Positions 30,051 through 36,961 of a DNA stretch of 61,657 nt are shown here, piece by piece. The DNA is from Nitrosopumilales archaeon (lineage in GTDB: Archaea > Thermoproteota > Nitrososphaeria > Nitrososphaerales > Nitrososphaeraceae). The stretch covers positions 34,299 to 95,955 of the forward strand of contig JBIQJB010000005.1 of the NCBI GenBank assembly GCA_044507735.1. The letters are read 5' to 3'. The translations under genes were made by a program, and so were the position numbers. Within the stretch, counting starts at the first letter, position 1. Each line of letters opens with the position of its first letter. The notes under the pieces are model-generated. The model worked only from the letters and a program-made list of their open reading frames with translations, was not told the origin of the DNA and made no database searches.

Positions 30051-30758
30051 GTGGAACACACACAACATTCTTCCCGTGCTACTGATTCTTACGAAGAACA
30101 TGGTGGACATGGCGACTCCGAGTCCGTCATTGTTAGAAGGATGGCCGTGCATGAGAGGCTGGCAGAGGAGATGAAGAACAGCGGGGTTGATTGCGTACCG
30201 CTCCCGCTCGGTTCGCACAAGCTAGAACGAGAAGAAACCTATTATAGCCACGGATTTGCCCTTTCGCCGAGGGTTGTGACGAACAAAGGTCTGATAGAGG
30301 TCAGAGGCAGAAGCGTTGATTTTGTGCAAGTGTTGCAGAGGGTTTGAGTGAATATGCCAAAGCAAGATCCAGCTCCGTTGCCCTATGGATCGCTCCAATA
30401 TCATCAGGTTCACTATATCGTTAATTGTAAGAGCAAGGAAAATGGAAATTTCCTATCACGATGTGAGCCCATTACAAAGGGTCACCTTGGAAACAAACGT
30501 GTTGTTGGTGTGAGGTGGACCGGCGCGGACCATTTTGCCGAGACATTGCAGGCAGATAGGGAACTTACTGAGATGCTGAAGGAGGTCATGCTCCGGGAAG
30601 GAGAGATAAGAATAGATCCGATGGATGATCACATTAGGATCTATGGCAAGTGGATCCACGAAGAATCCTTTGCATTCAACCAAACTATGTTGGAAATTGC
30701 AGACAGAATAGCAGGTCACATTAAGGCAAGGCTTCGCGCATTGGGCGAAGCTGATTGA
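30051..30758 (+). pseudogene. Hypothetical protein split by one in-frame TGA (30345-30347), or two abutting in-frame ORFs
   Basis: ORFs 30051-30347 and 30348-30758 share a frame with no spacer (..VLQRV*VNMPKQ..). Confidence 0.55.
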
Positions 30759-30837
30759 TTTCTTTTCTACAACAGTATTCACGACTACCGCAAGGAATGA
30801 AGTTAACTTTAATAGTCGTGGAAAAGCGCCAACTTTT

Positions 30838-32655
30838 GTGGAAAAGCAATCACCTTCTCTCAAGTCTGAATTGAAATTTGATGGTAAGACTGTAGTCATC
30901 ACAGGTAGTGGCACCGGTATCGGGCAGGCAATTGCAAAAAAGTTTGCAGAACACGGGGCAAATATCGTCATTATGGGCAGAAGAAAAGAACCACTAGATC
31001 AAACTGCAGATATATTGAAAGAAATAATTTCATCTGTCGGATCTCGGGGAAAGGTTGCAGTTTTTCCAGGTGTGGACGTCTCAGACGAAGCTGGAATCAA
31101 TTCAATGTTTTCCAGTCTGAAAGATCAATTCGGCAAGGTGGATATTATTGTTAATAACGCCGGTGTTTCCGGCCCTGTCAAGACTTTTACAAACGCTAGC
31201 GTCAAGGAGTTCCGCGACGCTGTTGCAATTCACCTAACAGGAACCTTCTGGACTTCTGTGAGTGGATTGAGCGCAATGGAAAAGGGCGGAAAGATAATCA
31301 CGATTGCCACATTCTTCACCGAAGAGAACCGCTATGAGCAGAGACCATACCGCTTCAGGACGCCCTATACAGCGGCCCAAGGCGCCAAGAATCGCCTGGC
31401 AGAGGCGCTTGCATGGGAACTTGCAGAACGTGGCATACGCTCTATTGCAACCAATCCCGGACCTGTTCACTCTGACAGAATTTACAAGACTGTTTACCCA
31501 AAGGCTGCTGCGGAATTCCTCAGAGTTGGAGGTTACCCCGGCTTGAGCTCATTAGAAGTTGAGAAGGTTACTGCGGGCGCTCTTCCGGCACTTGGAGAAC
31601 AAGACGACATTGTTGAAAAGGCATGCAGAGAGGTTGCAGTTGAAATCGCAAGATCACGCGGGCAAGAGTCTGAGGAAGATATCAAGAAGCTCACTGAGAC
31701 GGTGTCTGGTGCCCTTGCCAAGATGCAGGAGATCGCGGAGAAAATACAGAACAACACGAGCAAGATGATAGTCGATGGAGAATTCCTGACACAGGAGGAT
31801 GTGGCAGAGATGGTGATGAACCTCTGCGATGAAAAGATAAGCAAGCTGATTAACGGTAGAGTAATTCCCAATGACCGCGTGTTTTACCCAGTCAAGCCGA
31901 TAGTCGGAACTGCGGTAGAAGGACCGTCACAGCCAGATCTAAATGGCAAGGTCATTATTTTGACGACCAGCTCGTCGGCAAAGAAGGACATCGAGAGGGT
32001 CAAACATGTAGCAAGGCTTGCACAGAGCGCTGGCGCAAAGCAAGTGATAGTACTTGCAAATAACAGGAATGACATGCAAGAATACAGAGAATTCCATAGT
32101 CACGCAATAAACATGATCGACGAAGAAAGCGTAAGGCGCATCTTTAACACTGCACGGACGAAATTTGGCAAGATTGATTCAGTTATTCACTTCACTGGTG
32201 ACTATGATTATAACGTGGCATTCAGTGCGCTTTCGAGGAAGCAGTGGGATGAGCTGGTTGACAACTTTATTTACATTCCAGGTCTCATAACCAAAGAAGC
32301 CGTAAACGCAATGGCTCCACAAGGGGCACTGGAAGAGCCGGCAAAATACAAAGGGTCCAGTGGGACAGTTGTCATAGTAGGACCCGATTCGCCTGTTGGC
32401 AAAAAGATTTCAGGAGTGGTCAGGGCAAGAGCGGACGTATTCAGAGGAGCACTCCGACCATATACTGCAACTGTAAACCAAGAGCTTGGAGATGTGCTAG
32501 GCTCCAGCATAAAGCTACACCTTGTTCTTGCAGGCAATAGCGAAGGCACGGAGCCAGATGCCACGAGGCTGCACAATTCCATACTCCACCTTGCTGCCGG
32601 AATAGCTCTCAAGAGAAATGAAGCAATATTCTATGTCGACGAAGTAAGGGCATAG
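30838..32655 (+). CDS. Tandem short-chain dehydrogenase/reductase, malonyl-CoA reductase-like
   Basis: TGSGTGIG, NNAG, PYRFRTPY, PGPVHSDR in domain 1; helical insert; second degenerate Rossmann domain. Confidence 0.85.
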   Translation: MEKQSPSLKSELKFDGKTVVITGSGTGIGQAIAKKFAEHGANIVIMGRRKEPLDQTADILKEIISSVGSRGKVAVFPGVDVSDEAGINSMFSSLKDQFGKVDIIVNNAGVSGPVKTFTNASVKEFRDAVAIHLTGTFWTSVSGLSAMEKGGKIITIATFFTEENRYEQRPYRFRTPYTAAQGAKNRLAEALAWELAERGIRSIATNPGPVHSDRIYKTVYPKAAAEFLRVGGYPGLSSLEVEKVTAGALPALGEQDDIVEKACREVAVEIARSRGQESEEDIKKLTETVSGALAKMQEIAEKIQNNTSKMIVDGEFLTQEDVAEMVMNLCDEKISKLINGRVIPNDRVFYPVKPIVGTAVEGPSQPDLNGKVIILTTSSSAKKDIERVKHVARLAQSAGAKQVIVLANNRNDMQEYREFHSHAINMIDEESVRRIFNTARTKFGKIDSVIHFTGDYDYNVAFSALSRKQWDELVDNFIYIPGLITKEAVNAMAPQGALEEPAKYKGSSGTVVIVGPDSPVGKKISGVVRARADVFRGALRPYTATVNQELGDVLGSSIKLHLVLAGNSEGTEPDATRLHNSILHLAAGIALKRNEAIFYVDEVRA

Positions 32656-32955: not shown

Positions 32956-33750
32956 CTAGCGCAAAGTGAGCCAGTTTGGGATGAGTTTGAAAGACATGGC
33001 TATCAATACTATCCCTACAATCATCAGGGTCAGTCCTAACAATTTCTGCAGGAGTACTTCTTTCGCAGAGCGCGATATCCTTGCTCCAATCTGCGCGCCG
33101 GCGAACGCTCCTGCGGATAGTGAAACAGCCTGCAAGTAGTCAGGATTCAGAAGAGCAGCGTGTACAATGACGCCGGCTATTGAAGTCAGCATGAGAGTAA
33201 ATTGTGACGTAGGAGCGGCCCTATGCATTGTCAATCCAAGCACCAAGAGCATGGATGGCACAAATATTATCCCGCCCCCCACACCAAACATACTTGATAT
33301 CATGCCGGCTCCAAATGATGCCGCGAATACTCCAGCCCGCAACATAACTGAGCGCCTTTTGGCGGCAGCATCATTCAAGATTGAATTCTTGTATAGTACG
33401 TATATGCCAGTAAGGATCAGAATTACTCCAAAGTAGAGTTGAAACGATTCTGCAGAAAGTGATTCTGACAATAATGCGCCCAAGACTGCGCCAGGTATCG
33501 CAAAGGCGGCGATTTCCAATCCCAGACGATAGTTGATCCGCTTTTGGCGAGAATACTCCATAGTAGAGGACACACTCGTTGATGCCACTGCTATTAGGCT
33601 TGTACTAGCTGTTTGTGCTGGTGGCACCCCCAAGAAAGTGAGGGCAGGAACCATTATTATTCCGCCGCCCACTCCGAGCATCGAACCCAAGGTTCCTGCC
33701 CCTAGGCCTACTAGAATGAGAACTACTGCTGCAATGATCGGATCAAGCAA
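32956..33750 (-). CDS. TauE/SafE (TSUP) family membrane exporter
   Basis: Duplicated G.GGG.I.VP motifs and about eight TM segments. Confidence 0.9.
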   Translation of the reverse strand: MLDPIIAAVVLILVGLGAGTLGSMLGVGGGIIMVPALTFLGVPPAQTASTSLIAVASTSVSSTMEYSRQKRINYRLGLEIAAFAIPGAVLGALLSESLSAESFQLYFGVILILTGIYVLYKNSILNDAAAKRRSVMLRAGVFAASFGAGMISSMFGVGGGIIFVPSMLLVLGLTMHRAAPTSQFTLMLTSIAGVIVHAALLNPDYLQAVSLSAGAFAGAQIGARISRSAKEVLLQKLLGLTLMIVGIVLIAMSFKLIPNWLTLR

Positions 33751-34675: not shown

Positions 34676-35689
34676 TTGCGAGTAATCGTTGTTGGTTTTG
34701 GAGTAGTAGGACAGAGCTTTGCCAAGTTGCTGCTGTCTCGATCAGCCGATCTCTATAGCCAGTATGGAATCAAGCCGCGCATAGTAGCTTGCGTCGATAA
34801 CAAAGGTGCTGTAGTAGAGCCTGCAGGGATAGACCTACAGCGGCTTCTTGAGGTAAAGAAAACAAAGGGCACCGTTGGGCCTAATGAGAAGGGGTATGAC
34901 AGCAAGTTCGACCCATTGCAGATAATTGAAAATGTTGATGCCGAAGTTCTGCTCGAGTGCACTCCAACCAATCTAACAGACGGCGAGCCCGGAACTACTC
35001 ACATAATCGCAGCCATGAGAACTGGGAAGCATGTAATCAGCGTGAACAAAGGCCCGCTGGCCCTGGCGTTCCCCTCACTCATAGAGCTCGCAAACTACAA
35101 CGGAGTGATGCTCAGATTTAGCGGTACAGTGGGTGGAGGGACACCCATTCTCGAATTTGCCAAGCGCTGCCTAAAAGGTGACAGGATAACATCCTTCAAA
35201 GGTATTCTTAATGGGACTACCAACTATATCTTGAGCAAAATGGCAGAGGGACTGACATACCAAAGCGCGTTGCAAGATGCCGCAGAAAAAGGTTATGCAG
35301 AAGCAAACCCATCACTGGATGTAGATGGTTTTGATGCCGCCGCAAAACTAGTCATCATGGCTAATTGGATCATGGGTATGAAGGTCACAATGAAGGACGT
35401 GAGGCGCACAGGGATTACAAAGGTATCAGTTACAGATGTGAAGAAAGCGGCGCAGAGAGGAAATGCAATCAAACTTATAGCATCATGCGATAACAGAAAA
35501 CTGGTCGTTGAGCCGACTGAAGTTTCAAAGTCTGACCCGATCTGTGTAAATGGCACGCTGAACGCAGTGACATTCTCATCAGAACATTCTGGCCAGCAGA
35601 CGATAATTGGACGCGGCGCTGGCGGAATGGAGACTGCCAGTGCAGTTTTGCGAGACCTTATTGAAATAAGAGATACAACATTCAGCTAA
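34676..35689 (+). CDS. hom: Homoserine dehydrogenase
   Basis: GFGVVG, NKGP, VGGGTP, GILNGTTNYIL, GYAE.NP..DVDG.DAAAK, GAGG.ETASA. Confidence 0.95.
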   Translation: MRVIVVGFGVVGQSFAKLLLSRSADLYSQYGIKPRIVACVDNKGAVVEPAGIDLQRLLEVKKTKGTVGPNEKGYDSKFDPLQIIENVDAEVLLECTPTNLTDGEPGTTHIIAAMRTGKHVISVNKGPLALAFPSLIELANYNGVMLRFSGTVGGGTPILEFAKRCLKGDRITSFKGILNGTTNYILSKMAEGLTYQSALQDAAEKGYAEANPSLDVDGFDAAAKLVIMANWIMGMKVTMKDVRRTGITKVSVTDVKKAAQRGNAIKLIASCDNRKLVVEPTEVSKSDPICVNGTLNAVTFSSEHSGQQTIIGRGAGGMETASAVLRDLIEIRDTTFS

Positions 35690-36244: not shown

Positions 36245-36961
36245 TCAACTGATTCTGAAACCGCCAAATGAGACGCCAGACCTGGATGTTGTTTCAGACC
36301 TCTGGCTTATCCCGAGCAGATCGATCAGCTCTCGGAGATTCTTTGTTTGGAAATAGACTGAGCCAGGACCTGTTACTTCTGTTGCAAGACCCTCGCCACC
36401 AAGGATGGTAGTTTTCATTCCTCCAACCTTGGTAACGCGATATGCAGCCTGGTCACTCAATGCTACTAGGTGATAGTTGTCAATCATCATTTTTTCTCCA
36501 GCTGCAAGTTGCTTGTGCACGATACCCCCATACGCGTTCAAGAACATATCACCCTGACCTGTGGCTTTGAGCATGAAAAACTCACTCCCAAACAGACCCT
36601 TTGTGAATCCCTGCCACTGTGTGTCGAGAAGTACGCCGGGTGTTGATGCAACATATGATCCTGACTGTACGATAAAGCCACTTCCTTGTTTGACCTCCAC
36701 CCGTACAATGTCGCCAATTGGAGGTCCTGTAAGACCAATCGAGCAGTCGCCATGTGCCAGATAGTCATTTACGAAGAAAGATTCGCCGCCGAGGGCAGTA
36801 ACCTTGATCTTTTTCAAGAAACCCCCGTCACGCGTTCGGGTCTTGATTTCAATGTCGCCTTTCATGTAGACCATTGCGCCTGATTCTGCGGTTATCTTTT
36901 CACCAGAGCCCAAATCGACCTCGAGTATCGCCATAGGCTCTTTCAGGATTCGATATTGCAT
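36245..36961 (-). CDS. AIM24 / TIGR00266 family protein
   Basis: AESGAM, GGESFF.N, ID..H.VA, GGEGL...TGPG...QT motifs. Confidence 0.88.
   Translation of the reverse strand: MQYRILKEPMAILEVDLGSGEKITAESGAMVYMKGDIEIKTRTRDGGFLKKIKVTALGGESFFVNDYLAHGDCSIGLTGPPIGDIVRVEVKQGSGFIVQSGSYVASTPGVLLDTQWQGFTKGLFGSEFFMLKATGQGDMFLNAYGGIVHKQLAAGEKMMIDNYHLVALSDQAAYRVTKVGGMKTTILGGEGLATEVTGPGSVYFQTKNLRELIDLLGISQRSETTSRSGVSFGGFRIS

Follow-up and report, generated by a model that had tools for sequence, protein, structure and literature searches.

The gene at 30838..32655 of a 61,657-nt stretch of DNA (the window) from a Nitrosopumilales archaeon encodes a 605-aa tandem short-chain dehydrogenase/reductase (SDR) that we predict from its sequence to be an NADPH-dependent malonyl-CoA (perhaps also succinyl-CoA) reductase of the thaumarchaeal 3-hydroxypropionate/4-hydroxybutyrate (HP/HB) cycle, with a probability of about one half. 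The less specific prediction, that its substrate is of the malonyl type and its reductant NADPH, has good support in the conserved residues. We favor the HP/HB reductase because of the fold, the substrate-clamp residues, the characters otherwise found only in the C-terminal half (MCR-C, as opposed to the N-terminal half, MCR-N) of bifunctional malonyl-CoA reductases (MCRs), the bacterial gene fusions, the distribution among ammonia-oxidizing archaea (AOA), the patchy occurrence of aldehyde dehydrogenase (ALDH) as an alternative, and the existence of a cycle step without an assigned gene.

The initial annotation had read the product as an SDR domain, a helical insert and a degenerate second SDR, and the open reading frame (ORF), the Pfam matches and an AlphaFold2 (AF2) model bear this out. 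The motifs that it quoted are present at residues 158-184 (TFFTEENRYEQRPYRFRTPYTAAQGAK), 206-214 (NPGPVHSDR) and 47-49 (GRR). The features of the gene are listed with the evidence for each in brackets; HH denotes profile-profile alignment.

30838..32655, + strand: the 605-aa tandem SDR gene, with GTG start and stop codon in range (ORF list and translation)
30871..31470, + strand: catalytic SDR core, residues 12-211, from beta1 to the PGPV strand (Pfam adh_short 4.5e-43; AF2 strands and helices)
30901..30924, + strand: cofactor motif TGSGTGIG, residues 22-29 (invariant in 29/29 orthologues)
30976..30984, + strand: GRR, residues 47-49, likely contact of the NADP(H) 2'-phosphate/adenosine (R48 invariant)
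31231..31233, + strand: His132, at the classical tetrad Asn position (alignment column counts)
31309..31389, + strand: active-site segment, residues 158-184, with T158, a 6-residue loop insertion, Y171-x-x-R174-x-x-Y177, Q181 and K184 (character matrix over 83 modules)
31456..31479, + strand: PGPVHSDR, residues 207-214, R214 being the equivalent of CaMCR Arg773 / Rfx (Roseiflexus) Arg785 and S212 that of MCR-N Ser213 (alignments)
31474..31791, + strand: helical insert, residues 213-318, four helices, opening with the invariant RIYKTVYPKAAAEF (AF2 helices)
31792..31902, + strand: C-terminal part of the first SDR, residues 319-355, FLTQEDVAEMV...LINGRVIPNDRVFYPVKP (aligns to the MPTE-DVA...GE segment of MCR-C in the global HH alignment)
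31903..32652, + strand: degenerate second SDR (pseudo-SDR), residues 356-605, with a conserved RARxEVFRGALRP-TATVNQE helix (AF2 Rossmann-like strands and helices)

Pfam recognizes only adh_short/adh_short_C2, on residues 17-213, and finds no Semialdhyde_dh domain; the best 25 of 250 NCBIfam families all scored below their curated cut-offs, and none was specific. The protein has a 100% match to a database cluster and is 89% identical to a 'glucose/ribitol dehydrogenase family protein' of Candidatus Nitrososphaera gargensis. The window genome (97% complete) holds a single full-length copy, its other matches being ordinary SDRs of ~250 aa with at most 33% identity. The same 29 orthologues (51-89% identity) make up our orthologue alignment and underlie the AF2 model (pLDDT 87.2, pTM 0.88), in which a Rossmann SDR is followed by helices at 213-231, 238-247, 256-274 and 279-308, the end of the first SDR (to ~355) and a second Rossmann-like domain at 356-605; the helices of 213-308 sit before the last helix and strand of the first SDR. 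The sole internal stretch with pLDDT below 50 is the active-site loop at 161-170. The second domain carries neither the glycine-rich motif TGxxxGxG nor YxxxK, judging by its sequence and the orthologue alignment.

The first domain has the classical SDR marks TGSGTGIG (22-29) and NNAG (106-109), and T22, G23, G25, G27 and G29 are invariant in the 11 AOA proteins and 12 bacterial relatives compared. S24 and R48 align by HMMER with Rfx Ser593 and Rfx Arg616, which are reported to be an NADP+ ligand and a contact of the NADP+ adenosine, respectively (PMC10470521). Where classical SDRs have the tetrad Asn-Ser-Tyr-Lys with a 13-residue Ser-to-Tyr spacing, this protein has His132-Thr158-Tyr177-Gln181 with a spacing of 19. 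Q181 (Tyr+4) and K184 (Tyr+7) are invariant in 29/29 orthologues, so the swap of these two residues is neither chance nor a sequencing artefact.

An exhaustive search of representative proteins found the nearest non-AOA relatives to be modules in large bacterial proteins. We aligned 83 catalytic modules and tabulated their active-site columns:

AOA, n=13: Asn position H; Ser/Thr position T; Ser/Thr-to-Tyr spacing 19; Tyr+4 Q; Tyr+7 K
Bacterial Q-type, n=12: Asn position H; Ser/Thr position T; spacing 19-22; Tyr+4 Q; Tyr+7 K
MCR-C, n=19: Asn position N; Ser/Thr position S; spacing 18; Tyr+4 K; Tyr+7 Q
MCR-N, n=19: Asn position L/I/V; Ser/Thr position T; spacing 13; Tyr+4 K; Tyr+7 L
Second modules (of the bacterial fusions), n=10: Asn position N (7/10); Ser/Thr position T/S; spacing 13; Tyr+4 K; Tyr+7 mostly L
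Classical SDRs, n=10: Asn position N (9/10); Ser/Thr position S; spacing 13-14; Tyr+4 K; Tyr+7 hydrophobic

By these characters the AOA protein is part of a separate class of MCR-like tandem SDR modules, here termed 'Q-type', in which a single catalytic SDR that binds NADP(H) would be joined to a helical insert specific to the class and to one SDR without catalytic function. All 25 Q-class modules have the rewired tetrad His-Thr-Tyr-Gln with Lys at Tyr+7. The pair at Tyr+4/Tyr+7 is Q/K in these 25, versus K/Q in 19/19 MCR-C and K/Leu in 19/19 MCR-N modules, and the exactness of the reciprocity between K...Q (19/19) and Q...K (25/25) suggests that the two side chains are neighbors on one helix face, able to exchange roles. 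The initial annotation had noted a YxxRxxY core shared with the Chloroflexus sequence, with K and Q exchanged; the Chloroflexus motifs that it gave agree with our HMMER alignment to PDB 8hjw (ssyfggek..ipypnradyavskagq and pgpvegdr), and in the 83-module matrix the core is conserved and the exchange relative to MCR-C is exact. The 'DR' arginine is likewise conserved, R214 being R in 13/13 AOA, 12/12 Q-type, 19/19 MCR-N and 19/19 MCR-C modules. Two characters are common to the Q class and MCR-C only, namely the active-site loop insertion and a polar Tyr+4/Tyr+7 pair, while a 16-24-residue insertion after the NNAG strand occurs in MCR-N alone and is absent from the AOA protein; these three characters together link the AOA class to MCR-C and set it apart from MCR-N.

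The NADP(H) motifs, H132, T158, Y171, R174, Y177, T178, Q181, K184 and R214 are invariant across 11 AOA and 12 bacterial Q-type modules, and Y171, R174, Y177 and R214 are invariant in the 29 orthologues as well. In MCR, the counterparts of these last four residues are reported to hold malonyl-CoA or malonate semialdehyde by its carboxylate (Zhang et al. 2023, PMC10470521; Kabasakal et al., bioRxiv 10.1101/2023.03.21.533589); according to the same two sources their mutation abolished or markedly lowered activity, and the counterparts of R174 and R214 are proposed to provide acid/base function in thioester reduction. If the mechanism is like that of MCR-C, the inserted loop, which is flexible, and the helical insert would close over the substrate, Tyr171, Arg174 and Arg214 would bind the malonyl carboxylate and serve as acid/base, and Thr158 and Tyr177 would polarize the carbonyl for hydride transfer. 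Gln181, Lys184 and His132 would stand in for the usual Lys and Asn, holding the nicotinamide ribose and relaying protons. NADPH would in this way reduce a carbonyl three carbons from a carboxylate, most likely the thioester of malonyl-CoA to give malonate semialdehyde, with succinyl-CoA perhaps a second substrate, and the protein would fill the acyl-CoA reductase step or steps of the thaumarchaeal cycle that lack an assigned gene. Further basic residues conserved among the 29 orthologues (K217, K222, R229, R529, R536 and R540) could, speculatively, serve CoA binding.

Membership in the MCR tandem-SDR fold family is solid on the AF2 model, because the MCR halves match it over its full length and the next tandem SDR, 2et6, is far worse (Foldseek TMq 0.53). 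The best PDB sequence matches by HMMER were bifunctional malonyl-CoA reductases (8hi4 and 8hjw), each matched in both halves. The best structural matches in both Foldseek and VIA-align were the MCR halves rather than unrelated SDRs, and MCR-C and MCR-N were the sole full-length ones in the PDB (Foldseek E 1e-23 to 1e-26; VIA-align Z 33-36 over 488-519 residues). Single-domain SDRs reached VIA Z ~30 over ~250 residues, and classical SDR chains covered model residues 12-351. The values for the two halves are:

MCR-C chains: Foldseek TMq 0.67-0.70, rmsd 8-9 Å; VIA Z 33.2-34.3, rmsd 2.9-3.5 Å, 488-519 residues (most rows 501-519)
MCR-N chains: Foldseek TMq 0.66-0.68, rmsd 5-6 Å; VIA Z 34.7-36.2, rmsd 2.7-2.9 Å, ~490 residues

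The VIA ranges exclude 8hjw_A (aligned over its N half, Z 34.2), 8hi4_B (Z 31.4) and 8i70 (Z 29.9).

MCR-C shares the layout of the AOA protein, being likewise a catalytic SDR with a helical insertion and a pseudo-SDR (SDR3, lid/extra domain, SDR4; Chloroflexus aurantiacus, Roseiflexus castenholzii and Porphyrobacter dokdonensis; PDB 8a30, 8hi5, 6k8s and others). Both have the NADP(H) motifs, YxxRxxY and the 'DR' arginine, an extended Ser/Thr-to-Tyr loop (18 in MCR-C, 19 in the AOA protein) and a polar Tyr+4/Tyr+7 pair, and by HH the AOA pseudo-SDR is closer to SDR4 than to SDR2 of MCR-N. The AOA protein differs from MCR-C in the swapped Y-x-x-x-Q-x-x-K and in the changes of the tetrad Asn to His and Ser to Thr; the MCR-C triad (Rfx Ser731-Tyr749-Lys753) is replaced by Thr158-Tyr177-Gln181, with Lys three residues further on (K184). 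In the AF2 model the ~100-residue, four-helix insert occupies the same place as the MCR-C helical lid/extra domain, but it is ~65 residues shorter than the lid and has an extra, invariant 12-residue YKTVYPKAAAEF segment. Rfx Leu795 corresponds to L236, conserved, in the global HH alignment. The AOA protein is free-standing, unlike the MCR-C half, and the two are ~20% identical in structural alignments and 30-33% identical over the catalytic core.

MCR-N (SDR1-SDR2; PDB 8hi6, 8aew, 6k8v) is also a tandem of a catalytic SDR and a pseudo-SDR, reported to be without a large helical insert (bioRxiv 10.1101/2023.03.21.533589). It shares with the AOA protein the Thr at the catalytic Ser/Thr position, the Ser after PGPx-x and YxxRxxY; MCR-N Ser213, a nicotinamide contact that follows PGPxE, is matched by S212 in 13/13 AOA modules. 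Unlike the AOA protein, MCR-N has a 13-residue spacing, Lys at Tyr+4, Leu at Tyr+7, the NNAG insertion and L/I/V rather than His at the tetrad Asn position, so that of its triad (Rfx Thr165-Tyr178-Lys182, with classical spacing) the Lys is Gln here and the spacing is 19 instead of 13. The malonyl-CoA/succinyl-CoA reductase of the Sulfolobales catalyzes the proposed reaction in the crenarchaeal version of the cycle (PMC12894919; bioRxiv 10.64898/2026.09.02.748891), but this Asd-like enzyme (KEGG K15017) belongs to an unrelated fold family, and the AOA protein has no Asd domain.

The bacterial Q-type modules form one clade with the AOA proteins (SH-aLRT 100 in IQ-TREE; 0.999 in FastTree), are 36-45% identical to the AOA protein over the catalytic core (HH 923 over 522 columns) and share its H-T-Y-Q...K signature and loop insertion; they differ in being fused to a second tandem-SDR module and, in some, to enoyl-CoA hydratase (ECH), AMP-binding and medium-chain (MDR) enoyl-reductase domains. 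Bacterial multi-module proteins with Q-type modules are P0125, P0126, P0129-P0135, P0139, P0146, P0151 and P0156, and the source names of their cluster members are Binatia, Deferrimicrobium/Deferrimonas, Thermodesulfobacteriota, 'Deltaproteobacteria' and Chlamydiota metagenome-assembled genomes (MAGs). The Q module is followed by a tandem-SDR module with T/S-Y-K at classical spacing in 9/12 non-AOA Q-type proteins. P0131, P0134 and P0139 (1105-1137 aa) consist of those two modules only; they are as large as a bifunctional MCR but begin with the long-loop module. Additional ADH_N/ADH_zinc_N and ECH domains occur in P0133 and its cluster mate P0292 (2552 and 2579 aa), and additional ECH and AMP-binding domains in P0156 (4553 aa). 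The second modules are not enlarged (506-585 aa). A Q module is the only such module in 2/12 proteins (P0146, which may be a fragment, and P0135), and in P0126 a weak second module sits upstream of the Q module. A contig scan for the genomic context of bacterial Q-type genes yielded one true relative, on a 3.9-kb contig.

Some of these proteins are unusual in other respects. P0135 (1465 aa) joins its Q-type module to a following HATPase_c domain (histidine-kinase-type ATPase), either an odd fusion or a gene-calling chimera. Three are giants, P0125 (5945 aa), P0126 (5572 aa) and P0151 (6910 aa), the last of them from Chlamydiota MAGs; P0125, whose source name is 'phosphoenolpyruvate carboxykinase (GTP)', has three SDR modules.

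In the Chloroflexus pathway, ECH, AMP-binding and zinc alcohol dehydrogenase (Zn-ADH)/enoyl-reductase domains represent the three activities of propionyl-CoA synthase, which follow 3-hydroxypropionate formation. From these fusions we infer that the Q-module proteins would reduce malonyl-CoA in two steps, the module with the MCR-C loop being the CoA-ester reductase. It is possible, though the odds are somewhat against so broad a claim, that the His-Thr-Tyr-Gln(+Lys) modules are a third, hitherto undescribed catalytic MCR-type class, acting in all AOA as the free-standing malonyl-CoA (and possibly succinyl-CoA) reductase of the HP/HB cycle and in bacteria as part of reversed-order bifunctional MCRs and of megasynthases that take malonyl-CoA to propionyl-CoA on one polypeptide.

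For the distribution among archaea, families are coded f1 to f5; f1, f2, f3 and f5 bear the archaeal AmoA, and f4 is an AmoA-less family of the same order. In a class-wide survey of 401 genomes (full-length match, E <= 1e-30), the tandem SDR gene was found in the window genome itself, 76/77 f1, 219/224 f2, 10/10 f3 and 4/4 f5 genomes, and in 0/85 genomes of 16 other families, including 0/11 of f4. These tallies take in five unpublished genomes (G132, G230, G282, G326 and G364), without which f1 stands at 75/76 and f2 at 215/220. Among the matches listed, 10 of 150 rows have one in-frame stop inside the match; in the two such loci that we extracted (L021 and L026) the stop lies 5' of the start codon that gives a 597-601-aa protein. 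In the same sample, archaeal AmoA (PF12942) was found in 73/77 f1, 215/224 f2, 10/10 f3 and 4/4 f5 genomes and none elsewhere. A phylum-wide survey of 351 genomes gave 55 matches, namely the window genome, 53/53 f2 and 1/1 f3, and none in the remaining 296 genomes. The gene is single-copy and universal in the AmoA-bearing families searched, and among archaea it was found only in those four. The patchiness among autotrophic relatives that would have told against the initial annotation was thus not seen, the gene being present in all four AmoA-bearing families and no other family searched. It is an AOA trait, although its distribution does not say which trait.

A number of results weigh against a malonyl-CoA reductase, and some of them bear on the question of which MCR half the protein resembles. 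The canonical catalytic Lys at Tyr+4 is missing from the AOA protein, and its mutation is reported to abolish activity in both MCR halves (PMC10470521; bioRxiv 10.1101/2023.03.21.533589). T158 and S212, as read from the alignment, are MCR-N states and point the other way (the S212 column is S in 13/13 AOA, S/T in 15/19 MCR-N and G in 19/19 MCR-C modules). Rfx Arg799 of the lid and Arg1164 of SDR4, which are reported to hold malonyl-CoA (PMC10470521), fall on E240 and D552 in the global HH alignment and are not conserved, as far as that alignment goes. Although Foldseek and VIA-align tie between the halves (a tie by VIA's own rule), the VIA Z is marginally higher and the rmsd lower for MCR-N. 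The catalytic core scores HH 250 against MCR-N and 211 against MCR-C. Homology of the insert to the MCR-C lid was not detected: folded alone (pLDDT 81.3), the insert had a best Foldseek E of 0.53 against the PDB and a VIA-wide best Z of 6.3, to unrelated helical proteins, with no MCR chain among the matches listed, a result that does not show that the folds differ. The Q module in the fusions takes the N-terminal place that the alcohol-dehydrogenase half holds in canonical MCR, the co-distribution with AmoA amounts to a single evolutionary event or origin, and no HP/HB-cycle genes adjoin the tandem SDR gene (Pfam on neighbors).

Profiles and phylogeny were also tried as judges of the MCR half. 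The whole module scores HH 315 (430 columns) against MCR-N and 290 (531 columns, end to end) against MCR-C; the pseudo-SDR scores 75 over 194 columns against MCR-C SDR4, 50 over 132 against MCR-N SDR2 and 335 against the Q-type pseudo-SDR; and the helical insert matches Q-type modules only (probability 95%, versus <1% to either MCR half, the lid included), so that different domains point different ways. As a further point on the negative side, phylogeny leaves the relations between the classes unresolved. Deep nodes in FastTree have support of 0.22-0.81; in the IQ-TREE analysis of 52 catalytic domains, four strongly supported classes emerge from a polytomy (MCR-N 100, MCR-C 100, second modules 97, AOA with Q-type 100); and approximately unbiased (AU) tests reject none of the groupings of Q-type with MCR-C (p 0.575), MCR-N (0.68) or the second modules (0.612). 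The likeness to MCR claimed in the initial annotation therefore stands at the level of the tandem-SDR fold family, whereas its preference for MCR-C over MCR-N is not supported, given the VIA tie, the whole-module HH scores and the AU tests. The structural comparison that it proposed for this purpose does not discriminate, the VIA Z ranges of the two halves lying so close, and in detail the resemblance to MCR-C fails at T158 and S212, at the two arginines and at the insert, which is not detectably an MCR-C lid.

Some of this evidence would suit a semialdehyde reductase, a counterpart of MCR-N that takes malonic and/or succinic semialdehyde to 3-hydroxypropionate or 4-hydroxybutyrate with NADPH. 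This is a serious rival, although we consider it unlikely. It would account for the MCR-N states of T158 and S212, the core HH score, the VIA values and the N-terminal position of the Q module in two-module proteins; moreover, in 2018 the succinic semialdehyde reductase of N. maritimus was itself among the enzymes given as not yet identified (PMC6038301). Yet the loop insertion and polar Tyr+4/+7 pair are MCR-C characters, the MCR-N insertion is absent, and the fusions would then have to use the classical-spacing T/S-Y-K partner module of 506-585 aa as the CoA-ester reductase. N. maritimus, furthermore, is reported to have a characterized malonic semialdehyde reductase already, of the iron-type alcohol dehydrogenase (Fe-ADH) family (cited in PMC8287830).

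The enzymes of the window genome that might carry out these reductions comprise two ALDH-superfamily, two Semialdhyde_dh and two Fe-ADH proteins. The two Semialdhyde_dh proteins are presumably accounted for by Asd and ArgC, two being the number expected. One Fe-ADH is glycerol-1-phosphate dehydrogenase (NCBIfam 420 bits, above cut-off), and the other falls below all cut-offs:

G000 contig C17:139967-140917 (L061:1480-2430): 317-aa Fe-ADH-family protein

This protein is plausibly the counterpart of the N. maritimus malonic semialdehyde reductase, which is reported to be of the same family (cited in PMC8287830). At E <= 1e-30 it was found in 71/73 f1 and 81/81 f2 genomes, which speaks against a semialdehyde reductase role for the tandem SDR. 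With the query used, no protein of this type was found in f3 (0/8) or f5 (0/6), so another enzyme must do the second reduction there, which speaks for it; a search of five f3/f5 genomes for the Fe-ADH family gave matches in four, all weak, with open frames of 352-414 aa that resemble glycerol-1-phosphate dehydrogenase. An ALDH, considered as the universal AOA alternative for the acyl-CoA reduction, was rejected: it is present in only 115/131 f2 genomes that are at least 95% complete, all 16 without it carry the tandem SDR, and it is found in 20/20 genomes of the AmoA-less f4.

Somewhat less probable than the semialdehyde reductase is an AOA-specific NADPH reductase for some other carboxylated carbonyl, outside the HP/HB cycle, or a protein that is regulatory or weakened in its catalysis. 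The classical tetrad has lost two of its four residues to replacement, the adjacent genes are not pathway genes, and an AOA-specific distribution fits any AOA trait. However, the cofactor and clamp residues are kept from archaea to bacteria, down to ~36% identity, an argument that the enzyme is active and its substrate malonyl-like, and through its fusions to ECH, AMP-binding and Zn-ADH domains the class is linked with acyl-CoA chemistry. That one Q-type site does both reductions, from malonyl-CoA to 3-hydroxypropionate, as fatty acyl-CoA reductases form an alcohol, is very improbable: the active site does mix MCR-C and MCR-N features, the gene occurs in f3 and f5, where the queries used found no Nmar-type Fe-ADH, and the same MCR clamp residues are reported to bind both malonyl-CoA and malonate semialdehyde (PMC10470521), but the second catalytic module with which bacterial Q modules are mostly paired (9/12) would then be redundant, and f1 and f2 retain the Fe-ADH.

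The idea of a malonyl-CoA reductase candidate of this kind is not new. Hallam et al. 2006 (PMC1403158) flagged a similar one, tentatively naming an ORF of Cenarchaeum symbiosum in which the N-terminal domain, of the alcohol-dehydrogenase kind, shares 32% identity with Chloroflexus MCR; we infer that it is an orthologue of the 605-aa protein. Li et al. 2018 (PMC6038301) give the malonyl-CoA, acryloyl-CoA, succinyl-CoA and succinic semialdehyde reductases of N. maritimus as not yet identified, with the activities measured in extracts, and in a 2020 MAG study (PMC6964070) and a 2026 survey (bioRxiv 10.64898/2026.09.02.748891) the step is still without a recognizable gene. The full-text literature that we searched contained no biochemical assignment of a thaumarchaeal malonyl-CoA reductase gene, in agreement with the initial annotation. 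Our additions to the idea are a definition of the class, its indel and swap characters, its fused relatives in bacteria, and the evidence that excludes ALDH as a universal alternative.

The neighbors of the tandem SDR gene are two small ORFs, TauE, homoserine dehydrogenase and purC/K/E; some of these, with one more gene of the neighborhood, are:

30051-30347 and 30348-30758, + strand: two co-oriented small ORFs (98 and 136 aa) immediately 5' of the SDR gene, with no Pfam family
32956-33750, - strand: TauE/SafE-family membrane protein, convergent with the SDR gene (Pfam)
36245-36961, - strand: AIM24-family protein, with no evident link to the SDR finding (Pfam 2.3e-61)

Homologues of the 98-aa and 136-aa ORFs flank the SDR gene in 13/21 and 12/21 loci, respectively (families f1, f2 and f5), TauE/SafE homologues occur in its flanks in 16/21 loci covering all four AmoA-bearing families, and the homoserine dehydrogenase gene (34676-35689) is syntenic with it in 12/21. 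This synteny is uninformative about the pathway. Directly downstream of the SDR gene, nine marine (f2) loci have a 158-aa ORF (e.g. L041:4522-4995, - strand), whose homologue in the window genome (44% identity) is unlinked (G000 contig C14:9690-10139). At the 5' end of the SDR gene, a TTTAATA lies ~27 nt before the GTG start (window 30808-30847), which we take to resemble an archaeal TATA box placed as for a leaderless transcript, and GTGGAAAAGC is present twice, at 30818 and 30838.

AOA rank with the most abundant microbes of oceans and soils, and their carbon fixation runs through a distinctive HP/HB cycle. Genome-based calls of this pathway rest on an incomplete marker set, because the malonyl-CoA and succinyl-CoA reductases have no assigned gene in the literature searched; the tandem SDR is a candidate for that place. 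The rewired tetrad, in which Asn has become His, Lys has become Gln and a Lys has moved by one helical turn, is of interest to SDR enzymology, as are the fused bacterial forms to the engineering of 3-hydroxypropionate routes.

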